A stretch of 64,000 bases of DNA from an uncultured Acidobacteriaceae bacterium (GTDB taxonomy: Bacteria > Acidobacteriota > Terriglobia > Terriglobales > Acidobacteriaceae): assembly GCA_963838015.1 (NCBI GenBank), contig CAWIPG010000007.1:114867-178866 (forward strand), read 5' to 3'. This document shows, in pieces, positions 6,301-57,709 of the stretch. The notes beneath the pieces are model-generated. The model was not told where the DNA came from and ran no database searches. It saw nothing but the letters and a program-made list of their open reading frames with translations. Position 1 is the first letter of the stretch; every line of letters starts with the position of its first letter. The position numbers were made by a program, and so were the translations under genes.

Positions 6301-8176
6301 ACTCATCATCGTTTCGATGTTGGTCGGGGATGTAGTCGTTCTATGGCAATTCCATGTCGTCCAGTCACAAGCGGAACGGCTCAATGAATATGACGAGGAG
6401 TTGGTAACTGTCTTGCGTGTTCACTCCGACGTGTTGAAGTTTCGCGACACGCTTGAGTCACTCGCGAACGCAAAAAATACCGAACATCTGAAGGCAGAGA
6501 CTCAATCGATGACTGAGGCGTTTGCGGAGGACATGCGAAGTGCAGAAAGCGCCCTGTTGGCCGTGCATTCCGACAACGCCTCTGACCCAACAACCCTCCC
6601 CACGCTCGCAGTCATCCAGTCGACGCTTCGATCACAGACTGCGTCAATGATCGAGTTGGCTGAAGCGAATGATTGGAACGCTTTGCAATTGCGGCTCGCC
6701 AACCAGCTACGCCCGCTCGAACTTTCGAGCTCTACCCTGGTGGAAAGCGTCGACCGCGAGGTAAAGACGGAACATACCCAGGTTGCAGCCAATATCCGCC
6801 AGGTGCAGCACTGGATTTTTATTGTTGTGCCGGCCACGGTTGTTCTCACCTTGTTGATTGCCGGGACATTGGGATTTGTAATTACGCGCAGCATCACGCG
6901 GCCCCTTGAACAACTGGTCGAGGGTTCAAAGATGTTGGCATTAGGGGAGTTCGAACATCGAGTTCCGATCGAGGGCGAAGATGAACTTGCCCAACTCGGG
7001 CGCGTATTTAACGATACGGCGCGACAATTGCACGATCTCTATGAGAGCTTGCAAAGCAGCGAGGACCGGCTCCGCCGGGTCATCAATACGATTCCCGCCC
7101 ATGTTTGGAGCTCTCTGCCGGATGGTTCAGTCGACTTCATCAATCAACGTTTGCTCGAATCTACTGGACTATCAATCGAGGCATTGCTTGGATCCGGTTG
7201 GCAGTCGATCGTTCATCCGGATGATCGGGCTAGATACATGGCTAAGTGGGGATCGGCATTGGCCACAGGTGAACCCGTCGAGATTGAAGCTCGCATTTGG
7301 ACTGCGCGGCGCGACTATCGGTGGTTGCTTGTGCGCAATGTACCTGTGCGTGATGGTCTTGGAGGGATCGTCAAGTGGTACGGTACCGGCATCGATATAG
7401 AGGACCGGAAACGCGCCGAAGAGGCATTACTTAAAGCGCAGGCAGATCTCGCACACGCGAATCGCGTAACTACAATGGGCGAACTCAGTGCCTCGCTTGC
7501 GCACGAGATCAATCAGCCCATTAGTGGCGCCATCACAAATGCTTCTACCTGTCTGCGCCGGCTCGATCGCGAGCCGCCTGATCTCGAAGGCGCCCGGGTT
7601 GCGGCTTCAAGGATAATTCGTGATGCGAACCGGGCAGCGGAGATCATTAACCGAATCAAGCTGTTTTTCACAAAGGGTGTTGTGACAAAGGAGAGCCTGG
7701 ATGTCAACGAGCTGATTCGCGAGATGGAGATTCTTCTGCGTAACGAAGCGACCCAGCATTCGGTTTCTGTTCAGACAAAGCTCGCAGCGGATCTGCCGCT
7801 CATCGTGGCAGACCGGATCCAGTTGCAGCAGGTATTGATGAACCTGATGATCAATGGCATCGACGCGATGAAGGCCGTCGATGGCCCGCGTCAACTCACG
7901 CTCGGCACCGGGACTGATAGCAATGAACAGCTTCTGGTATCGGTCGAAGACACTGGTATCGGACTTCCACATAACCAGTCTGACCAGATATTCAACGCTT
8001 TTTTTACGACCAAGGAACACGGCACAGGAATGGGACTTCGTATCAGCCGAACGATTATTGAGGCTCACGGTGGCCGGCTCTGGGCTACGGACAACCATCC
8101 TCGCGGAGCGAGTTTTCATTTCACGCTGGCTGTCTCCTCCATTGCCGGGAGCCTTGACGCTGGGCGCAGCGCCTGA
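4883..8176 (+). CDS. sensor histidine kinase ORF with N-terminal SBP copy 2; probably two genes merged by a 1-nt indel
   Basis: The N-terminal ~440 aa are paralogous to 3329-4684. From MNRLRLNIGPRLVL (ATG 6251): TM, periplasmic helical region, TM, HAMP, PAS, HisKA (SLAHEINQP) and HATPase (DTGIGL...GTGMGL). Confidence 0.8.
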   Translation: MSYMMRCAERHWSASHRIRNFIMVAILLSGSLFSGCRKPTQPVTISFLDAEGQGVPGDHRMLSDVLQEFTRETGIRVNDLSTPEDNGSKLDLAMSLLRSGAPSPDVYSVDTIWAGTMGDYLIDLQPYFASEIPSQDRDFIESYMVHGKLVAMPYNPNVEVLVYRTDLLAKYGYKTPPRTWDELEKMAARIQAGERGEGKKDFWGFVWAGAIASESEALIGEGLEWQAAEGGGHIIEPDGRISVNNPDVVRAWERAAHWVGWISPPSVVSYTTTDSENKFWVSGNAAFQLEWALTYEVGVLDKPFRDKVGVTSIPAGKSARVADVGAYSLGISRTSAHRDEAVQLIQFLIRKQAQSLASPHVEKLGRKVEYFEVPLVMAKIYPWWCKPGESAGSTVVLRPSVVAGSNYEAVSKAYSHALHSVLTRESTAPAAAAALEKRSFRSWVVAGLNWEQVRTEMNRLRLNIGPRLVLCFVLIIVSMLVGDVVVLWQFHVVQSQAERLNEYDEELVTVLRVHSDVLKFRDTLESLANAKNTEHLKAETQSMTEAFAEDMRSAESALLAVHSDNASDPTTLPTLAVIQSTLRSQTASMIELAEANDWNALQLRLANQLRPLELSSSTLVESVDREVKTEHTQVAANIRQVQHWIFIVVPATVVLTLLIAGTLGFVITRSITRPLEQLVEGSKMLALGEFEHRVPIEGEDELAQLGRVFNDTARQLHDLYESLQSSEDRLRRVINTIPAHVWSSLPDGSVDFINQRLLESTGLSIEALLGSGWQSIVHPDDRARYMAKWGSALATGEPVEIEARIWTARRDYRWLLVRNVPVRDGLGGIVKWYGTGIDIEDRKRAEEALLKAQADLAHANRVTTMGELSASLAHEINQPISGAITNASTCLRRLDREPPDLEGARVAASRIIRDANRAAEIINRIKLFFTKGVVTKESLDVNELIREMEILLRNEATQHSVSVQTKLAADLPLIVADRIQLQQVLMNLMINGIDAMKAVDGPRQLTLGTGTDSNEQLLVSVEDTGIGLPHNQSDQIFNAFFTTKEHGTGMGLRISRTIIEAHGGRLWATDNHPRGASFHFTLAVSSIAGSLDAGRSA

Positions 8177-8205
8177 AGGCCCGGGAATTCGGCTTTGCAG
8201 CCGCT

Positions 8206-9606
8206 CTACGCAAACGGCTCCAGTTTGCCGAGGATGGTCGGCAGATATTCCGAGACTGTCGGATGAATGTGCATCGCGCGCTGGATTACCGTGTACGGCG
8301 CCTTCGCATACATCGCGTCTAGTAGAACATGAATCACTTCATCGCCTCCGACACCAAGAATCGCAGCACCCAGAATTTGTTTCGTTTCTGCATCGGCGCA
8401 GATCTTGATGAAACCTTGTGTCTCACCCTTTTCGTAGGCGCGACTTACCTTGCTCATCGGATATTTCACAGCGAGAGCCCGACGGCCCGACTTCCGTACC
8501 TCTGCGTCCGTCATGCCGCATCGTCCCAGCGGCGGATCGATATACAGCGCGTAGGCCTGGATCCGATCGGAAACACGGCGATGGTCAGCGTTAAAGAGAT
8601 TGTCCGCTACGATCTCGTAGTCGTTATAGGAAGTATGCGTGAAGGCGCCGCGGCCGTTGCAGTCGCCCAGAGCCCAGATACCGGGTACGTTGGTTTGGAG
8701 CTGATCGTCGACGATGATGTAGCCGCGTTGGTCGGTCGCAACCCCGGCCCGTTCGAGACCCAGATCGCTTGTATTGGGGATGCGCCCGACCGCTAGAAGC
8801 ACGTGCGTTCCTGACACTTCCTTCGAATCTTCGCTGCATTCCATGCGGACTACAACGCCGTTATTTCCTTTCGCCAGCGAGATACATTCCGCATTCAGCC
8901 GGATGTGTATGCCCTCAGCCTCCAGAATTTCGTGCACAGCTTGAGAGACGTCTTCGTCCTCCCGTCCAATGAGGCGCGGTCCCATTTCCACAATCGTGAC
9001 TTCGCTGCCGAAGCGGCGATAGATTTGGGCGAACTCCAGACCTACATAACTTCCGCCGCCGACGAGAAGATGTTCGGGCAAGAAATCGATGTCCATCATC
9101 GACGAGTTGTCGAGAAATGGGACGTCGTGAATCCCCGGCATATCGGGAATACGGGCCCGCCCGCCGACGTTGATATAGATCTTGTCGGCCTGCAGAACTT
9201 CATCGTTCACTACGACAGTGTTTGACGATTGAAAGCGGGCTTGGCCTTGTATGACCGTACAATTCTTCGTTGCTCGGAGCGATTCCTCCACTCCCTTGCT
9301 TGATCTCCCGGAGGCCGCATCCTTGCGGGCTTTGACTCGCTTAATATCGACGCGCACATCCCCAGTGGCAAAACCATATTCCGCACCTCGGCGGGCAACA
9401 TGGATCGCATAGGCGCTTGCCACCAGCGTCTTTGTCGGGATGCATCCCGTATTCACGCATGTGCCGCCAAATTTATGGCGTTCGATAATAGCGACAGTTT
9501 TGTCGGCGCTTGCAAACCGAGCCGCCAGGGCCGGGCCCGCCTGGCCGGTCCCGATAATGATTGCGTCAAAGTGCTTCATAGGAGAGACAATGTTTGCAGC
9601 GTTCAT
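8206..9606 (-). CDS. class I pyridine nucleotide-disulfide oxidoreductase (FAD)
   Basis: IIIGTGQAGP dinucleotide fold and GGTCVNTGCIPTK redox-active disulfide. GGAG precedes ATG 9606. Confidence 0.85.
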   Translation of the reverse strand: MNAANIVSPMKHFDAIIIGTGQAGPALAARFASADKTVAIIERHKFGGTCVNTGCIPTKTLVASAYAIHVARRGAEYGFATGDVRVDIKRVKARKDAASGRSSKGVEESLRATKNCTVIQGQARFQSSNTVVVNDEVLQADKIYINVGGRARIPDMPGIHDVPFLDNSSMMDIDFLPEHLLVGGGSYVGLEFAQIYRRFGSEVTIVEMGPRLIGREDEDVSQAVHEILEAEGIHIRLNAECISLAKGNNGVVVRMECSEDSKEVSGTHVLLAVGRIPNTSDLGLERAGVATDQRGYIIVDDQLQTNVPGIWALGDCNGRGAFTHTSYNDYEIVADNLFNADHRRVSDRIQAYALYIDPPLGRCGMTDAEVRKSGRRALAVKYPMSKVSRAYEKGETQGFIKICADAETKQILGAAILGVGGDEVIHVLLDAMYAKAPYTVIQRAMHIHPTVSEYLPTILGKLEPFA

Positions 9607-16042: not shown

Positions 16043-16132
16043 TGGCGGAGGGAGAGGGATTCGAACCCCCGGTACCCTTTCAGGTACAGCGGTTTTCAAG
16101 ACCGCCTGTTTCAACCACTCACACATCCCTCC
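16043..16132 (-). tRNA. tRNA-Ser (anticodon UGA), CCA encoded
   Basis: Minus strand GGAGGGATGTGTGAGTGGTTGAAACAGGCGGTCTTGAAAACCGCTGTACCTGAAAGGGTACCGGGGGTTCGAATCCCTCTCCCTCCGCCA. It has a 7-bp acceptor stem, CTTGAAA anticodon loop, long variable arm and GTTCGAATC T-loop. Confidence 0.93.
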
Positions 16133-31454: not shown

Positions 31455-31489
31455 TCGGAATGCAAATAAAAATGAAGCTCGCATCCGAA

Positions 31490-31601
31490 TCTCATGTTCC
31501 CCGTTTCCGGGCGGGAGTTGGCACCTGGCGGTCGGGATATATGATCCCGATCCGGTTGCCGTGGCGTCACAGGGCTCGTCCCTCAGCCACTCTGCATGAA
31601 A
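31490..31601 (-). promoter_or_regulatory. SAM-I (S-box) riboswitch
   Basis: Minus strand reads TTTCATGCAGAGTGGCTGAGGGACGAGCCCTGTGACGCCACGGCAACC...CCAGGTGCCAACTCCCGCCCGGAAACGGGGAACATGAGA. This matches the conserved SAM-I core (AGAG, GAGGGA, GGCCC-like, GGCAACC, GGTGCCAA, closing P1 CATGA). Confidence 0.85.
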
Positions 31602-31916
31602 TTCTGTCTGCCCCGAAGGGCAAACTTGTCTCCACGATGCTACACGGGAGGGTGGGGTTCGTCAATAGAGTAGTGGATCGGTGGATTTTGGTAGCAGTGC
31701 AGCCTACGAAAATGCCTAAATGAGGACAGCCACCGTCGACTGCCCAAGTTCGAGCGAAGCTCGATTCCTTTCCCGGCATCACCAAATACACTAAGCTGCC
31801 CCACACTTCCCGATCTCGCAAAGTCCTGCGACTTTGCAAAGCTCCGAAGCATGAGGCAGCTTTAGTTCCCCAAGTTTTTCAAGCCCGTAAGCCGAGCTTC
31901 TTTTCCCGTTCCTTAG

Positions 31917-51203: not shown

Positions 51204-51227
51204 AAGCCGGGCCAACCAGCCCGGCTT
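51204..51227 (-). terminator. hairpin terminator of a truncated minus-strand gene remnant
   Basis: AAGCCGGGC-N6-GCCCGGCTT lies about 30 nt after the stop at 51257-51259 of a remnant encoding ...RRRIATVIFGVALLLAGIIRLMI. Confidence 0.45.
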
Positions 51228-51358
51228 TGTGGCGTCTGGACGACGACTTTCCCAGGTCAGATCATAAGTCGGATGATTCCTGCAAGCAGAAGAGCCACGC
51301 CAAAAATCACTGTTGCGATGCGTCGTCGCGGCGTGGCTTTGTTGCGTTCCTTCTCTTC

Positions 51359-52057
51359 AGGAGGCCGCAGGGCGGAAGCGCATCGCCCTTGCTGGCGAAT
51401 ATCTACCTTCACTACGTCTTTGATCTTTGGGTCCAAGCATGGCGTAAGAAGCGTGCGCACGGCGATGTGATCGTGGTGCGCTACGCTGACGATATCGTGG
51501 TTGGATTCGAGTTCAAGACGGAAGCTGAACAGTTCTGGAAAGAACTCGCCGAACGCATGGCGAAATTCCAACTGGAACTGCACCCGGAAAAGACGCGACT
51601 CTTCGAGTTCGGACGCCATGCGGCGGCGAACCGAAAGCGCCTCGGTCTGGGCAAGCCGGAGACCTTCGATTTTCTCGGCTTCAAGCATATTTGCGGGAAG
51701 ACGAAGAAGGAGCGGTTTCTGGTGCTTCGGCAGACGGTTCGCAAACGCATGCAAGCTAAGCTGCAGCAGGTGAAGATCGAGTTGTGGCGACGCATGCATG
51801 ACCCTGTTCCTGAAGTCGGTAAGTGGTTGAAGTCCGTTGTGGGCGGGCATTTTCGTTATTTCGGAGTACCGGGTAACGGTCATGCCATGGCCCATTTTCG
51901 TTTCACCGTGAGCAACCTCTGGCATCGCACGCTGTGCAGACGAAGCCAGCATGGTCGCGTTCTGTGGGAGCGAATGAACCGGCTCATCCGCCGCTGGCTG
52001 CCTCCGGCCCATATCTGCCATCCTTATCCTTCGCGCCGTCTGCGCGTCACCACCTGA
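51359..52057 (+). pseudogene. group II intron reverse transcriptase/maturase, 5'-truncated
   Basis: Homology starts at PQGGSASPLLANIYLHYVFD (RT block 4), then YADDIVV and the maturase/X domain. RT blocks 0-3 are absent in every frame upstream. Confidence 0.8.
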
Positions 52058-52129
52058 GGCAAGAGCCGTATGCGGGAAATCCGCCCGTACGGATCTGTGC
52101 GGGGGGTACGGAGCAATCCGTATCCCTAC
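51360..52129 (+). mobile_element. group II intron 3' fragment (domain IV ORF remnant, domains V and VI)
   Basis: Domain V GAGCCGTATGCGGGAAATCCGCCCGTACGGATC at 52063-52095, followed by a domain VI-like hairpin ending ...CCCTAC at 52129. Confidence 0.75.
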
Positions 52130-52377
52130 CGCGACTCCCTTACACCCCGTGCGCAGCACGGCTAAAAACCTCAACCCCGCAAACCAGCTCACGGGAGCGC
52201 TACAACCTCACCCTCACCGTGCCGGAATCGCCACGCTTCCGGGTAGGGATCGGCGGCAGATCGAAACCGGCAAGCGCCGCTAATCGGACCCGGATCACGG
52301 CGCGGATCGGCGTGACCTGCTCCCCTCTTTCCGAACAAACCTGAGTATGATTTTGTCGAAGGAAAGGGGAAGGGAGT

Positions 52378-52653
52378 ATGTCGAAGAGCAATCACACCGA
52401 GGCGCAGATGATCGGGGCGCTGAAGCAACTGGAGGCGGGGCGCAAGGCGGAGGACGTGGCGCGTGAAGTAGGGGTGTCAAAGCACACGATCTATGCCTGG
52501 AAGGCGAAGTACGGAGGGATGGACGTGAGCGAGGCGCAAGAAGCGAAGCAGTTACGCGACGAAAACACGCGACTCAAGAAGCTGGTAGTGGACCTGAGTC
52601 TGGACAAAGAGATGCTGAAGGCGGTGATCGCAAAAAACGGATGGAGCTCGTAG
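52378..52653 (+). CDS. IS3-family transposase OrfA (HTH)
   Basis: MSKSNHTEAQMIGALKQLEAGRKAEDVAREVGVSKHTIYAWKAKY plus a leucine zipper. Slippery A-AAA-AAC at 52632-52638 for the -1 frameshift into OrfB. Confidence 0.9.
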   Translation: MSKSNHTEAQMIGALKQLEAGRKAEDVAREVGVSKHTIYAWKAKYGGMDVSEAQEAKQLRDENTRLKKLVVDLSLDKEMLKAVIAKNGWSS

Positions 52654-53528
52654 ACCAGCGGGCGGATGCGAACTGGCTGCGGAGCAAGTATGCAGCGAGC
52701 CAGCGCCGGGTTTGCGGGCTGATGGGGATAGCGGTAGCGAGTTACTACTACCGAACGACACGCAGCGATGAGCCGCTGCGCACGCGGCTGGTGGAGTTGG
52801 CGCGAGAGAAGCCGCGCTTCGGGTATCGACGGCTACATGTATTGCTGGGCCGCTCGGGAGAGCAAGTGAACCACAAGCGGGTGCATCGCGTGTACCGGGA
52901 AGCGGGGTTGATGTTGCGGCGGAAAAAGCGCAAGCATTGTGTACGCGAGGGAAGGCCGCTGGTGGCGCGGACTACGGCGAACCAGGAGTGGGCGTTGGAT
53001 TTCGTGCACGACGCGGTGGAATGCGGACGGGCAATCCGGGTGCTGAGCGTGGTGGACGCCTACACGCGAGAGTGTCTGGCTTTGGAAGTGGATACGAGCT
53101 TTGCCAGCCGCAGAGTGACGCGCGTGCTGGAGGCGATCATCGCCGAGCGTGGGATGGCGGGAGCGATTCGCTGCGACAACGGGCCGGAGTTCACCAGCCG
53201 GCATTTTCTGGCATGGGCAGTGGAGAGGCAGATCGAGGTGATCCACATTCAGCCGGGCAAGCCGACGCAGAACGGGCGGATCGAAAGTTTTCACGGACGG
53301 CTGCGGGAAGAGTGTTTGCGCGTGAGCTGGTTTCAAAATCTGTTCGATGCGCGGCGCAAGATCGCGGCGTGGCACAAAGAGTACAACGAGGAGCGACCGC
53401 ACAGCAGCCTGGGATACCGCACGCCGAAGGAATTCGCGGCGGCGCAGGCGGCAGACTTCTACACAGCTGAGCGAGAGGCAAGGGACTGCAGTCGGAAGGT
53501 GTTACGAAACCCACTGGAAAATCGATAA
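52641..53528 (+). CDS. IS3-family transposase OrfB (DDE), 3' end displaced by IS insertion
   Basis: WALDFVHD...VVDAYTRE...DNGPEFTS...YNEERPHSSLGY. The last ~10 codons are read from the inserted IS1182-like end. The native tail resumes at 54990 and stops at about 55070. Confidence 0.85.
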   Translation: MELVDQRADANWLRSKYAASQRRVCGLMGIAVASYYYRTTRSDEPLRTRLVELAREKPRFGYRRLHVLLGRSGEQVNHKRVHRVYREAGLMLRRKKRKHCVREGRPLVARTTANQEWALDFVHDAVECGRAIRVLSVVDAYTRECLALEVDTSFASRRVTRVLEAIIAERGMAGAIRCDNGPEFTSRHFLAWAVERQIEVIHIQPGKPTQNGRIESFHGRLREECLRVSWFQNLFDARRKIAAWHKEYNEERPHSSLGYRTPKEFAAAQAADFYTAEREARDCSRKVLRNPLENR

Positions 53529-54989
53529 CAAGGATGCGAAGATGCCCTGCAAGCGAGGTCATTCATGGCCTATATCGAGGGCGAGCAGCGCAGTCAACAC
53601 AGCTTGTTTCCTACCACGTTGGACGAACTGATTTCAGAGGATCATGTCTGCCGTGTGATCGAGGCGTTTGTGGGCCGGCTGGACATGGCGAAGCTGGGTT
53701 TCATTCGCTCCGAACCGGCTGAGACCGGACGTCCTGGCTACGACCCGCGCGATCTGCTGAAGCTGTATTTGTACGGGTATCTGTGGCAGATTCGGTCCTC
53801 GCGCCGGTTGGAAACCGAGTGCCAGCGCAATGTGGAAGTGATGTGGCTGCTAGGGCGACTGGTTCCCGATTACAAATCGATTGCTGAGTTCCGGCGGATG
53901 CATCGTGAGGCGGTAGCCGAAGCGGGAGCGGAACTTGTGCGTTTCGCGCGCTCTGTGGGATTGGTCCGTGGGGAGTGGGTAGCGATCGATGGTTCGAAGT
54001 TCCAGTCGGTGAGTAGTGTGGATCGGGTCCGCGAGCGGGAGGCGCTGAAGCGTTACCTGGATCAGGTGGAGCGAGCCGACGAAGAAAACGAAGTAGTGAT
54101 TGATGCGAGCGCGGTGGCCGACGCTCTGGAAAAACTAAAGAGCGACCCGGAGCCAGAGGCAGCCTTTATGAAGATTGGACGGCAACTGACGCCTGGCTAC
54201 AACGTACAAACCGCCGTCGATGCGAAACATGGGCTGATCGTGGCTCACAAAGTCACCACCGATGCGAACGATCAACGCATGCTGTTGCCCATGGCGGAAG
54301 CGGCAAAGCAGGCGGTGGGTTCACCGGCCTCTCTGAACGTGATCGCGGATGGCGGCTACTCCAACGGCGAGCAGTCGGAAACCTGCGAGTCCCAAGGTAT
54401 CGTGCCCTACGTGCCTCCCAAGCGCACGGTGAACAACCACGGTGATGGCAAACTATTCGACCGCACTGAGTTCGTCTATGACGAAGCCACAGATACCTTC
54501 CGCTGCCCGGCAGGCCAGACGCTTTGGCGTAAGCAGTTCTCTAAAAAGGATCGCACCGTGACGTATACACCCCGACGAAAAGTCTGTGGACCGTGTGCAC
54601 TCAAAGCGCGTTGCACGCTAGGCCCGCGGCGCTACGTTTCTCGACACCTTCATGAGGGAGCCCTTCAGCGGATGCAGCAACGCACCACACCGGAGGTCAT
54701 GAGGCTGCGAGCAGCGACCGTGGAGCTTCCTTTCGCCGCGCTAAAGTATCGTATCTTCGGACACCCACGCTTTTTGTTGCGCGGCCTCGCAGGAGCACAG
54801 ACGGAGATCAACTTGGCGACGTTGGTTTACAACCTGAAACGAATGCTGAATGTACTAGGTGCCTGTGAGCTCCGAGATGCTCTAACGGTCTGAGCGAGCA
54901 TCGCTCTAGACTGCCACACCTCAAAGAGAAATATTTTGGATCAACCCATCTCCCGCGACGATTTTTCTTGACGCTTTCGTAACACCTTC
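53495..54989 (+). mobile_element. IS1182-family insertion sequence nested in the IS3 element
   Basis: 15-nt terminal inverted repeats GAAGGTGTTACGAAA at both ends enclose a single transposase gene. Confidence 0.75.
53565..54893 (+). CDS. IS1182-family transposase
   Basis: MAYIEGEQRSQHSLFPTTLDELISEDHVCRVIEAFV...GRPGYDPRDLLKLYLYGYLWQIRSSRRLE...EVMWLLGRLVPDYKSIAEFRR. Confidence 0.85.
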   Translation: MAYIEGEQRSQHSLFPTTLDELISEDHVCRVIEAFVGRLDMAKLGFIRSEPAETGRPGYDPRDLLKLYLYGYLWQIRSSRRLETECQRNVEVMWLLGRLVPDYKSIAEFRRMHREAVAEAGAELVRFARSVGLVRGEWVAIDGSKFQSVSSVDRVREREALKRYLDQVERADEENEVVIDASAVADALEKLKSDPEPEAAFMKIGRQLTPGYNVQTAVDAKHGLIVAHKVTTDANDQRMLLPMAEAAKQAVGSPASLNVIADGGYSNGEQSETCESQGIVPYVPPKRTVNNHGDGKLFDRTEFVYDEATDTFRCPAGQTLWRKQFSKKDRTVTYTPRRKVCGPCALKARCTLGPRRYVSRHLHEGALQRMQQRTTPEVMRLRAATVELPFAALKYRIFGHPRFLLRGLAGAQTEINLATLVYNLKRMLNVLGACELRDALTV

Positions 54990-55215
54990 AGACGCCGTCC
55001 CTTGCCCCTCGCGCTCCCCCATCCCGGCTCAAACCGGAGAGGGAGCAACAGAAAGTTGTCGTATTCTTACGTGATCGGAAATCGGGGGCAGGTCAAACAT
55101 ATACCGTAACCGCAGCCATTGCTGGAACCTGGACGTACCTCTCCAGTTGTCTCCAAGGCGCCGAGGCACATATGGAACAGCCCTCTCCCAGAAAGATGAT
55201 TGTGCCCCGACGTGC

Positions 55216-55491
55216 TTAATGGCCCTGGGGATCGTTCCGTGGAGTCAACGGGTTTTCATTATTCATCTTGTCTGCTTCGTGCGCCCCTACCCCTTTGCGG
55301 TATATCCACGAAATACCCGTCGCGATTGAAACGAGCATTAGGGCAACCATGAAAACCCGGATCGCTTGAATCACCGGAAGCAAACTTAGCAGCAGTATGG
55401 CTGCCGCTCTAGGCGAGACCAGTGACAGGAACAAGGCACCGAAGACAGCCGACCAGCAAATGACGAGAATCCGACCGAGGGTATTTCTCAC
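55216..55491 (-). CDS. small multi-pass membrane protein (candidate immunity 2)
   Basis: The GTG start overlaps the preceding stop (GTGA at 55488-55491). Three hydrophobic segments and lower GC than the surroundings. Confidence 0.45.
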   Translation of the reverse strand: MRNTLGRILVICWSAVFGALFLSLVSPRAAAILLLSLLPVIQAIRVFMVALMLVSIATGISWIYRKGVGAHEADKMNNENPLTPRNDPQGH

Positions 55492-55856
55492 GCCTGCACC
55501 CTCCTTCGTCGAATTACCTGCGGGAGATATATGAAGTAACAGTAGACGCAGCTCCCATACCAAAACCCAAACAGGAGAACCAGGAACCATAGTCGCTTAG
55601 AAGATTTCTTCGAGTCGTCCAGCCGCACCCAATACACCCACATGCCAAACCACAAGAAGAGCAGTGCGCATGTTCCCAGTACCCCCAGAATGGTCCATGA
55701 AATTCTCATCCAGAATGCCATCTTTGTCAGGTCTATCCAACCCTGCAACACAGGAAACAGGGCAAAGACCAGAAAGGTGGATGCAAAAAACAGCTTTGCT
55801 ACCCCGGAACTCATGAGCCAATCGTCGGCCATCCCTTTCCAGTGTGGCGGTAGCAT
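55488..55856 (-). CDS. small multi-pass membrane protein (candidate immunity 1)
   Basis: ATG 55856 lies 8 nt after GGGAGG and 73 nt downstream of the RHS toxin stop. Four hydrophobic segments. Confidence 0.55.
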   Translation of the reverse strand: MLPPHWKGMADDWLMSSGVAKLFFASTFLVFALFPVLQGWIDLTKMAFWMRISWTILGVLGTCALLFLWFGMWVYWVRLDDSKKSSKRLWFLVLLFGFWYGSCVYCYFIYLPQVIRRRRVQA

Positions 55857-55929
55857 CTAAAAAACCTCCCTCGTGCCGACTTCCTCGGTACCTGTCTGGT
55901 ACATTCCGGTTCCTTTCTAGCTTGCCAGG

Positions 55930-57120
55930 TTATTCAGAACTTCCCGTATCAGAGTCGGGCGCTGTCTTACTAGCGCCGGTGTCTGCCGAAGGTGGAGCGG
56001 GAGGCAGCGGAGGCTTCGGAGGCGAAGGCAAATTGATCTCATTCTTGACGTTAGTAAAAGCATCTCCCAGTGCGCTCCATCCGTCCTTTGTGGCCCCGAT
56101 TTCCGCACCTGCGAGAGCGATCGCTCCGACCTCAACTCCTATTCCTACACGGTCGCCGTTCGGGTTAACGGTCGTATTGCCCCCAATGGAATCAGTAATT
56201 TCCTTCGTCGGTGTTTCGGCCCCGGTCACCTTGCCTGGATTAGCTGTCAGCACCGTTTGCGACACAGAGACGTTTTCACCTAGCTGCGGGCCATCTCTTG
56301 GCCCGACTTTAACGCCAGCTTCCACCGATTTGGATACCTGGATAGCTGCGTCCTTCGATGTTTCAAGGGTGCCCTTGAAGGCAATGCCGGCCTTAGCCTC
56401 AACAGACCCCCTCGTTAGGCTTATCTCTCCCCCCACCCCTATACTCGCGCTGGCATAGAAAGATGCGGCAAAAGTCTTAATGTCACTCCAAGCCGTCGCC
56501 CAATCTCGTCCATCCGGGTCAATGTACCGTAACGGATTATTGATAGTGTACGAGTATGAGTTGAGGTCCTGCGGATTCCTGAGGTGTTTAGCGGGTTTTG
56601 GATCGGCACTCATGAACCTACCTAAACTCGAAGCATCAAACCTCGCCCCAAAGTTGTCCAGACCACTCTCCGAATCCCGTTCTTTGCCGGTGAACTTGTA
56701 GTTCTGCGCAACATTCGGGCAGTAGTCATCCTGTACGCCGCCGTAGGGATAGTAATCAATATCCTGCTCGCAGGCGCTGCCTGTCGCATTCTCCACTACG
56801 CCGTGCGATCCCAGATGATCGGAGAAATAATAATGGACCGCCCCCGCACTATCGACACGCGCCACCCGCTGCCCGTTGAAAAAGATGTAGTTGTTCTGCA
56901 CGTTTCCCGATAAATCCGTCTCCGTCAGCGCATCGCTTACGAAATTGCCCCTCCAATAAAGAGTTCCCGTGGCACCGCTGGCGGACGGGTGGCCCAGCCT
57001 TCCGTCCTTTTTTCTTCCCGTTCCGGAACTCTGGGTGCCCCGTCCTTGCGTTTTTTGCAAGGGCGGGTACGATGCTGCCTGTAGCATGTTGCTTGTCATG
57101 CCCAGCGGCCTGCATCGCAC
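55930..57120 (-). pseudogene. RHS repeat-associated core protein, 5'-truncated orphan C-terminal fragment with unassigned toxin tip
   Basis: YD/RHS motifs YYFSDHLGS, DYYPYGG, FTGKERDSESGLDNFGARFDASSLGRFMSADP and boundary RYIDPDGRDW, then about 190 aa of unmatched Gly/Ala/Val/Thr-rich sequence with a Pro-rich tail. Codons upstream of about 56975 are read from a REP element. Confidence 0.75.
57033..57070. repeat. REP element, left flank of RayT gene
   Basis: GGGTGCCCCGTCCTTGCGTTTTTTGCAAGGGCGGGTAC. Confidence 0.75.
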
Positions 57121-57646
57121 TTACGGCGCTCATCACCTGCACTTTATCACCTGCTCCTGCTACCGGCGACTGCCTTTTCTGAGCACCGCGCGCAGCCGTG
57201 ACCGCTTCCTCTCGATTCTGGAACGGACGCGCGAGCGCTATCGCTTCGTAGTCGTCGGCTACGTGGTCATGCCCGAGCACATCCACCTTCTGCTGACCGA
57301 GCCCGAGGTGGCGAATCCTTCCACCGCGATGCAAGTGTTGAAACAGCGCACGGCACGGGCGTTACTACCGAAGAGCAAGCGGAAGGACCCGCGCCAGCGT
57401 AGTCTGTTCGTCGGGGAGTCGCAGCGCCGGGCGTTCTGGCAGGCGCGCTTTTACGACTTCAACGTGTGGACGACGAAGAAGCGCGTGGAGAAGCTGAGGT
57501 ATATGCATCGCAATCCGGTGAAACGAGGACTGGTGGAATCGCCGGAACAATGGCGCTGGAGCAGTTATCGTTTCTATCTTCTGAATGAGGCGGGGCCGGT
57601 GGCCGTGAATGAGGGCTGGGCCAAGATTTCATTTCGGGCGGCATAA
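57098..57646 (+). CDS. REP-associated tyrosine transposase (RayT, IS200/IS605-like Y1 HUH)
   Basis: HLHFITCSCYRR, HUH motif MPEHIHLLL and catalytic Tyr context RYMHRNPV. Confidence 0.85.
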   Translation: MPSGLHRTYGAHHLHFITCSCYRRLPFLSTARSRDRFLSILERTRERYRFVVVGYVVMPEHIHLLLTEPEVANPSTAMQVLKQRTARALLPKSKRKDPRQRSLFVGESQRRAFWQARFYDFNVWTTKKRVEKLRYMHRNPVKRGLVESPEQWRWSSYRFYLLNEAGPVAVNEGWAKISFRAA

Positions 57647-57669: not shown

Positions 57670-57709
57670 GTACCCGCCCTTCGCAAAGTGCGCGAAGGAC
57701 GGGGCACCC
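57670..57709. repeat. REP element, right flank of RayT gene (inverted relative to left)
   Basis: GTACCCGCCCTTCGCAAAGTGCGCGAAGGACGGGGCACCC. Confidence 0.75.

Follow-up and report, generated by a model that had tools for sequence, protein, structure and literature searches.

An orphan RHS toxin-tip cassette in an Acidobacteriota chromosome, with two small membrane proteins as candidate immunity partners

The locus described here raises the question of how an RHS (rearrangement hotspot) toxin tip separated from its delivery gene would act, and which of the genes beside it would protect the cell that carries it. It lies in the window, the term used here for the whole stretch of 64,000 nucleotides (nt) analysed, from an uncultured Acidobacteriaceae bacterium (contig CAWIPG010000007.1), and comprises a mechanical open reading frame (ORF) that ends in the tip and two small genes downstream of it, here named imm1 and imm2. 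RHS toxins are among the main means of warfare between bacteria and, to our knowledge, almost all of the characterised RHS tips are enzymes from Proteobacteria. That the element is a 'displaced' or orphan C-terminal cassette, derived from an RHS polymorphic toxin system and located in an Acidobacteriota chromosome, is well supported, as are its partners. The reading favoured for the whole, by a slight balance of probability, is that the orphan cassette encodes a membrane-inserting, non-enzymatic RHS toxin, with immunity acting inside the membrane. By itself the window copy belongs to a well-known kind of element, the orphan cassette in a mobile-element hotspot, and is an ordinary one; the toxin and immunity families found inside this known kind of system are new.

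The RHS part of the ORF retains the C-terminal end of the shell and the core, in the order …GTLYWRG…HYYFSDHLGSHG…GRFMSADP…RYIDPDGRDW. Residues 123-204 match the NCBIfam model TIGR03696, 'RHS repeat-associated core domain', with an E-value of 9.1e-18 and 64.6 bits (cutoff 32.5), and this match terminates at the RYIDPDGRDW boundary, where the text reads …NNPLRYIDPDGRDW and the tip starts directly after. When the full-length carriers P0031 and P0038 were compared with the window by tblastn, the alignments were confined to positions 56035-56973/57090. RHS homology begins at about 56973-56985, the first ~45 codons of the ORF are read-through of a repetitive extragenic palindrome (REP) and not RHS, and neither a second RHS-like sequence nor a full-length rhs gene was identified by tblastn elsewhere in the 64 kb. 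The ORF contains no N-terminal trafficking region and no YD-repeat shell. The window copy is regarded as an orphan because the RHS similarity is so confined and the 5' end of the ORF is REP read-through. The preliminary description of this DNA had proposed that the last RHS repeats and the core boundary are kept, that the 5' part of the rhs gene is missing, and that this is a displaced cassette and not a complete delivery gene; the three proposals hold, the tblastn result and the REP-bracketed transposase gene at the 5' end being in agreement. Relatives of the cassette are found in classic arrays behind main rhs genes: a main gene with three orphans in L001, five cores within 16 kb in L011 and six cores in L023.

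The tip comprises the 189 amino acids (aa) after DPDGRDW and is rich in Gly, Ala, Val and Thr, with the segments IGVGGEISL and VGAIALAGAEIGA and a PSPPKPPLPPAPP tail. No match to it was identified in Pfam (396-aa ORF and 30 family members scanned), among PDB sequences with single-sequence phmmer (E<=10) or among plasmids with tblastn, and NCBIfam gave nothing beyond the RHS core in the 396-aa ORF. A profile built from 30 tip sequences found its best match among the PDB sequences at E 0.18, which is spurious. The assignment to no established family, as first proposed, is thus sustained by empty searches throughout, and no known toxin domain was matched. A word-indexed search of 5.8 billion proteins returned five relatives only; an exhaustive profile search of 1.84 billion representatives returned 87 tip clusters (counted at 50% identity) with E<1e-3, of which 64 have E<1e-10 and 18 have E<1e-30. 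The window tip fits the family profile with E 3.6e-68; the match covers positions 1-182 of 186 and is interrupted by neither a frameshift nor a stop. Wherever upstream sequence is retained the domain starts directly after DPxGxD[W/F/L], with few weak or divergent exceptions, and it extends to the C-terminus in nearly all members. It is borne by full-length RHS proteins of 1376-2013 aa (P0031 with 1376 aa, P0038, P0044, P0056 and P0074) and by an ORF of 1648 aa in L028. The full-length carriers present RHS repeats (Pfam RHS_repeat) and signal-peptide-like N-termini; no PAAR, VgrG or other trafficking domain was recognised by Pfam in P0044, P0056 and the L028 ORF.

Selection was measured against homologues in other contigs as the ratio of non-synonymous to synonymous substitution rates (dN/dS). 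It is 0.09-0.15 for the tip among three orphan copies, which is strong purifying selection, 0.19-0.24 for imm1 and 0.37-0.49 for imm2, so that all three are more than chance ORFs. By sequence comparison the tip represents a real and conserved family that occupies the toxin position, and not a one-off; the family is undescribed and, on present evidence, centred on Acidobacteriota. Its broad alignments (A1 and A2) hold no conserved stretch of 7-10 columns, and the loci compared below were gathered with an imm1 alignment on genomes and a narrower tip alignment on metagenomes.

An imm2-domain protein is encoded at all 10 of the non-redundant tip loci with downstream DNA, either beside the tip or, where imm1 intervenes, one gene further away. 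Four architectures were identified: imm1 with imm2 (window, L011a, L023, L028 and L037), imm2 alone (L045), a tandem double hairpin of 158 aa (L011b, domain E-values 3e-15 and 6e-9) and a protein of 211 aa with an imm2-like N-terminus (L049, L051 and L052; E about 3e-9). Among 11,851 six-frame pieces taken from all loci, the imm2 hidden Markov model matched only genes at partner positions. The locus in L028 is a complete system, with the 1648-aa ORF followed by imm1 and then imm2. Two membrane-embedded immunity candidates had been proposed for the window and both are supported, although not as equivalents: judged by these alignments, the imm2-type hairpin is a domain common to the partners of all tip subfamilies, whereas imm1 is limited to one subclade. 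The cognate immunity candidate is most likely imm2.

Both proteins are strongly hydrophobic by hydropathy, imm1 with three transmembrane (TM) segments and imm2 with two; AlphaFold2 (AF2) models imm1 alone as three long helices, with a predicted local distance difference test score (pLDDT) of 75. The GGGAGG ribosome-binding site (RBS) and the GTGA overlap, from which the two had been described as translationally coupled small polytopic membrane proteins, are present as described, and an AGGAGG precedes the GTG of imm2. The GC content of the block formed by the two genes is also below that of the surroundings, as had been stated; the drop is real but mild (0.518 against a window mean of 0.566 with a standard deviation of 0.026, the 3rd percentile of 640-nt windows). 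In other loci imm2 has 55-79 aa, against 91 in the window. It is predicted to consist of two TM segments joined by a periplasmic loop of 5-10 residues with an invariant Pro, with N- and C-termini that are short and basic; with almost no sequence outside the membrane, its recognition of the toxin would have to take place in or at the membrane. Neither imm1 nor imm2 has a family annotation in Pfam or NCBIfam. A PLDc_N domain was considered for imm1 and rejected, the score being 17 bits against a threshold of 23.3 and only 4 of 20 members matching. The imm2 profile gave four matches in the 5.8-billion-protein set, swamped by hydrophobic-word candidates, and this search is uninformative on distribution.

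Relatives of imm1 number 25 in the large protein set, and 29 imm1 loci were found in 185,579 species representatives (one genome per species). Nearly all belong to Acidobacteriota (Terriglobales, Acidobacteriaceae, Bryobacterales and Acidiferrales). The homologues outside this phylum are those of L024 and L041, from metagenome-assembled genomes (MAGs) of Verrucomicrobiia, and of L043, from a Baltobacteraceae MAG, and may reflect horizontal spread or mis-binned contigs; in L024 an RHS core lies 2.8 kb upstream of imm1. At nearly all of the 29 loci imm2 comes after imm1, often with a 4-nt overlap. In-frame imm1–imm2 fusions were identified in L025 (7977-8531) and L033 (7944-8570) and an imm1–imm2–imm2 fusion in L021 (~7950-8774), and these natural (Rosetta-stone) fusions argue that the two proteins act together. 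A full tip stands directly upstream of imm1 in three of the loci (L023, L028 and L037) and tip remnants in two more (L016 and L019), while 22 of the 29 have no RHS core within 8 kb. This usual occurrence of the pair away from RHS genes fits orphan immunity.

Some of these loci have arrangements of their own. In L012 (6926-8572), where no RHS core occurs within 8 kb, a tandem imm2-type protein of 152 aa is encoded upstream of an imm1+imm2 pair, and the locus looks like a toxin-less 'immunity island'; a REP of the type found in the window (…CCCTTGCAAAAAGCGCAAGGATGGGGCAGCC…) lies just downstream. In L016 (6930-8569) a tip remnant covering profile positions 132-180 precedes three genes, the first encoding an imm2-like N-terminus (7273-7911, E 5e-5) and the next two being imm1 and imm2, which looks like a decayed toxin with its stacked immunity genes left behind. 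At the P0002-type locus (L001-L008 and L044; for example L001 6745-6960) the imm1 that follows the tip is intact for ~34 codons and then diverges. The contigs of this type all end within ~250 nt of the divergence point, which suggests that the assemblies are broken by a repeat or insertion sequence (IS), by which the immunity gene may also have been disrupted.

The nature of the tip was judged from an alignment of the 30 tip sequences, with a mean identity of ~35%. The only invariant or near-invariant positions are G21, G23, G74, G131, G140, W4, P161, P166 and P169, and it contains no conserved Asp, Glu, His, Ser, Cys, Lys or Arg. An enzyme is disfavoured because no catalytic-type residue is invariant, and the tip is probably non-enzymatic. 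With this alignment AF2 gave a model of pLDDT 71 and a predicted template modelling score (pTM) of 0.50, which comprises a helix (2-12), about nine strands within 15-137, four of them 15-16 residues long, a second helix (138-155) and a disordered tail. Column-averaged hydropathy over the 30 sequences shows a strict, family-wide alternation, with period 2, of hydrophobic and charged or polar residues, the pattern looked for in beta-hairpins. The hydrophobic moment at 180 degrees, mu(180), is 2.2, 2.3, 1.6, 2.3 and 1.4 for strands 15-30, 33-47, 53-67, 117-124 and 128-137, respectively. Hydrophobicity peaks in the Gly-rich segment 118-136 (VGIGVEVGAIALAGAEIGA), with a 19-aa Kyte-Doolittle (KD) value of 1.57 and several GxxxG spacings. 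The tip had been called glycine-zipper-like; this Gly-rich segment is indeed its most hydrophobic part, but long amphipathic beta-hairpins with conserved turn glycines describe it better. The top matches of the model by Foldseek against the PDB are almost all TM beta-barrels, among them OmpA, NspA, OmpX, Ail, autotransporter beta-domains and designed TM barrels, and are weak (E 3e-3 to 0.1, TM-scores 0.2-0.3); the viral library BFVD gave a similar outcome, with weak matches of barrel type.

A poly-proline run terminates 47 of the 48 full tips, with a Cys-x5-10-Cys loop added in 24; the tail of the window tip is without this loop. Two tips of L001 (96-1439 and 4674-5309) that are unmatched by the tip profile also end in poly-Pro (…APPAPPRPPVPGPPPTQ and …PTPAPKPPPPPPQQKPQQ). 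Since the run is shared by tips outside the profile, the tail may be a lineage-wide delivery or processing feature and not a part of the toxin.

The mechanism favoured for the family would begin in a full-length carrier, where the RHS shell would encapsulate the tip and autoproteolysis of the core at DPxGxD would release it. The tip would then act without catalysis, inserting into the cytoplasmic membrane of the target by means of the amphipathic beta-hairpins and of segment 118-136, which is Gly-rich and hydrophobic. The inserted tip would form a pore or ion leak that dissipates the membrane potential. The 2-TM hairpin of imm2 would protect the producer and its kin inside the membrane, working in the subfamily of the window in complex with the 3-TM imm1. 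The remaining ~160 aa of shell and core would serve as a recombination handle. The window copy would most likely be a silent reserve tip, recombinable onto a main rhs gene, and its immunity genes may still be expressed, protecting against neighbours. That the tip is a non-catalytic membrane-inserting toxin blocked by imm2, with imm1 in its clade, within the cytoplasmic membrane has, from the sequences compared, an even or marginally favourable probability, and for the pore mechanism taken separately the balance is about level. The effector had been described as membrane-targeting or pore-forming. Membrane targeting is inferred because catalytic-type invariant residues are missing and the synteny with tiny membrane proteins is obligate, and to that extent the proposal stands, with beta-hairpins as a better description than a glycine zipper. 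A much bolder version is rather doubtful: that this is the first RHS-delivered beta-hairpin pore or ionophore, used by Acidobacteria through a Sec-dependent route independent of type VI secretion (T6SS), with imm1 and imm2 as a two-subunit neutraliser and the poly-Pro/Cys–Cys tail as a periplasm-spanning or receptor-binding device.

Several points weigh against a membrane-inserting toxin with its own immunity pair. No segment of the tip exceeds the standard hydropathy threshold for a TM segment, residues 118-136 falling just short, and the tip has few aromatic residues and a net negative charge. The AF2 confidence is moderate and the TM-scores are 0.2-0.3, so the barrel resemblance may merely reflect long beta-hairpins, and soluble beta-sandwiches likewise contain amphipathic strands. 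No significant match supporting pore formation was obtained in the PDB-sequence and Foldseek searches. The promoter and terminator scan of the window cassette gave counts no higher than shuffled sequence and no convincing promoter. Either of imm1 and imm2, or both, may neutralise the tip, and the pair could have an unrelated, non-immunity function, given the 22 loci without an RHS core.

A near-identical cassette is found in the contig L010, with 98.6% DNA identity over window positions 55172-56928 only (L010 1661-3417), and the cassette is identical or nearly so in two further contigs in all, L010 and L054. Both flanks of L010 are unlike those of the window, the similarity ending at 55172, on the side that faces the IS5/IS1182-type transposase. 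The divergence between the two copies is mosaic: there are no differences in the 189 codons of the tip, none in imm2 and one in imm1, against 21 differences in 143 codons of the core, with a synonymous divergence (dS) of 0.21. This is the pattern expected if tip cassettes swap by recombination inside a conserved core, and the comparison suggests recent recombination at the core/tip junction. At the 5' end the remnant abuts the gene of RayT, the REP-associated tyrosine transposase, which is bracketed by a perfect 15-nt inverted REP pair and so forms a REP/RayT unit; the true start of the gene is probably near 57086, and no further copy of the REP was found in the window at <=3 mismatches. The REP/RayT unit had been said to replace the 5' part of the rhs gene. 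It does adjoin the remnant, but it need not be the cause of the truncation, because the RHS sequence of L010 is cut only 57 nt away with no REP/RayT present. Beyond RayT the genes are ordinary chromosomal ones, a MacB/FtsX permease and a family 2 glycosyltransferase (GT2). On the other side, positions 51227-54893 are nested mobile-element debris, and the short contig L054 has the same arrangement. The coordinates of all features are collected in Table 1.

Table 1. Position, strand and description of the features identified in the window.
Feature	Position	Strand	Remarks
imm2	55216..55491	-	91-aa 2-TM hairpin protein; GTG start; GTGA overlaps the imm1 stop
imm1	55488..55856	-	122-aa membrane protein, three long helices; immunity-complex candidate; GGGAGG 8 nt before ATG
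Mechanical ORF	55930..57120	-	396 aa; REP-derived read-through (first ~45 codons), RHS shell/core remnant, toxin tip and stop
Poly-proline tail	55933..56028	-	PSPPKPPLPPAPP…; predicted disordered
Toxin-tip core	56029..56499	-	Tip residues 1-157; predicted N-terminal helix, ~9 amphipathic beta strands, segment 118-136 and C-terminal helix GWSALGDAFTNVKNEI
RHS C-terminal shell/core remnant	56500..56985	-	~160 aa; TIGR03696 and tblastn with full-length carriers
RayT ORF	56969..57646	+	NCBIfam REP_Tyr_transpos, E 4.1e-31, 107.8 bits (cutoff 80); Pfam Y1_Tnp, E 1e-12
Left REP copy	57033..57063		Within the 396-aa ORF, at its 5' end; read in translation as PPLQKTQGRGTQ
Right REP arm	57695..57709		100% complementary to 57033-57047
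IS5/IS1182-type DDE transposase gene	53565..54893	+	
IS3-type element	52378-53528		
Broken group II intron	51227-52057, 52061-52135		Reverse transcriptase (RT) fragment and Rfam Intron_gpII match, respectively
S-adenosylmethionine (SAM) riboswitch	31489-31602	-	RF00162, 74 bits; unrelated to the cassette
tRNA gene	16046-16132	-	Unrelated to the cassette

Three other explanations have to be weighed. The tip may be a binder or blocker of an envelope target (lipid II or peptidoglycan synthesis, a transporter, or Sec, Bam or Lpt) or a cryptic enzyme of the periplasmic face, with the small membrane proteins shielding the target or sequestering the toxin at the membrane; this is rather unlikely. Toxins that act in the periplasm would also be compatible with membrane-anchored immunity, the tip is without a true TM-grade hydrophobic segment, its structural similarity to barrels is weak, and the conserved C-terminal helix GWSALGDA..NVKNE together with the poly-Pro/Cys-loop tail could form a binding module. 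However, none of the Asp, Glu, His, Ser, Cys, Lys and Arg residues is invariant, as would suit an active site; an imm2 loop of 5-10 residues with short basic ends leaves little surface to bind a soluble domain, and a period-2 pattern maintained over more than 60 residues fits a membrane or pore-lining sheet better than it fits a binding domain. Both this explanation and the membrane-inserting toxin take imm1 and imm2 as immunity proteins. It is very unlikely that the two are instead an independent small-membrane-protein module of Acidobacteriota beside which RHS cassettes merely landed. Chance insertion would not produce an imm2-domain gene at 10 of 10 tip loci, in four architectures and with diverged tip subfamilies, and the module travels with the tip, as the near-absence of differences between the window and L010 in tip, imm2 and imm1 shows against flanks that differ. 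The 22 loci without an RHS core in 8 kb, of which the pair beside lutABC (L013/L014) is an example, and the missing family annotation of both proteins speak for such a module, but 29 loci in 185,579 species representatives are a distribution as patchy as that of an accessory or orphan immunity gene, and in L012 two types of tip partner stand adjacent with no toxin, like an immunity island.

The third explanation concerns the copy in the window and not the family, namely that it is a decaying pseudogene remnant in a mobile-element graveyard, with no present function, and it is quite unlikely. The general view of orphan RHS tips as reserves that are functional (PMC3482391) counts against it. The 5' body is certainly missing, a REP is inserted in the reading frame, no convincing promoter was identified, and the neighbours are IS5-like and IS3-like elements and a broken group II intron; yet the tip fits the family profile end to end, the RBSs and the coupled start of imm1 and imm2 are intact, the same or nearly the same cassette is found in L010 and L054, and the dN/dS among the orphan copies is that of a sequence under constraint.

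The new content is at the family level and comprises a non-enzymatic-looking, beta-rich tip, a universal partner with a 2-TM hairpin, a clade-specific 3-TM partner and frequent stand-alone pairs. The value of the locus is in this family-level definition and in a testable toxin/immunity pair, rather than in the window copy itself. If the tip is indeed membrane-inserting, it would be a second class of RHS pore-former beside Tse5, structurally unrelated to it, and would offer a compact model for immunity inside the membrane, with an imm2 as small as the 55-79 aa of the other loci. The stand-alone imm1–imm2 pairs suggest that orphan immunity to this tip is selected in soil communities. Demonstration of a beta-type pore and of immunity within the membrane would make the finding considerably more interesting.

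Among known systems, the classical orphan rhs modules of Enterobacteria have the same layout, with a core fragment that ends at the DPxG motif, a tip and immunity genes, and the relatives of the cassette likewise form tandem arrays behind main rhs genes, and divergence is mosaic between the window and L010. Unlike those modules, the window copy is isolated, with no main rhs gene within 64 kb and with REP/RayT and IS borders, and the host phylum is Acidobacteriota. With beta pore-forming toxins and small outer membrane (OM) barrels of the OmpA/OmpX/NspA class the modelled tip would share long antiparallel hairpins, the alternation of hydrophobic and polar residues and Gly-rich turns. It differs from OM barrels in that the TM-scores of 0.2-0.3 are not significant, no aromatic girdles are present and a single chain may not close a barrel. 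We know of no RHS-delivered beta pore-former.

In the 2012 survey of polymorphic toxins (Zhang et al.) the two-helix Tox-WTIP is the only pore-forming domain listed; the survey also includes Imm-CdiI, an immunity family with 2 TM segments that pairs with a CdiA C-terminal toxin (PMC3482391). The likeness is that of polymorphic tips thought to act on membranes, with two TM helices in the CdiI immunity or in the WTIP toxin. The tip described here differs from Tox-WTIP and the CdiA toxin in having ~160 aa, a beta-rich prediction and no two-helix hairpin; the Tox-WTIP motifs RxxR and Wx[ST]IP are both absent from it, and none of the Pfam models derived from the survey matches the ORF or the 30 tip members.

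The remaining comparison is with Tse5 (RhsP1, PA2684) of Pseudomonas aeruginosa and its immunity protein Tsi5 (PMC9637101, PMC10684867). The C-terminal toxin of this Rhs protein, Tse5-CT, forms pores and depolarises cells, and it is neutralised by Tsi5, an inner-membrane protein with two TM segments (PMC9637101). No sequence similarity links the two toxins, and among the PDB chains, with that of Tse5 if it is deposited there, none gives an E-value below 0.18 with the tip profile. Whereas Tse5-CT is predicted to be alpha-helical with TM helices, the prediction for the tip is of mainly beta structure, and no helix in it is of TM grade. Delivery of Tse5 is by PAAR/VgrG and the T6SS, in contrast to the carriers of the tip, with their signal-peptide-like N-termini and no trafficking domain recognised by Pfam, and immunity is here two-component (imm1 with imm2) or a tandem hairpin. 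The likeness is in the organisation of the system: the toxin occupies the C-terminal position of an RHS protein and has no enzymatic signature, a downstream gene encodes an integral membrane protein that is very small and has two TM segments (here imm2, with its basic N- and C-termini) and, by analogy, depolarisation of the membrane would be the expected outcome of the tip.

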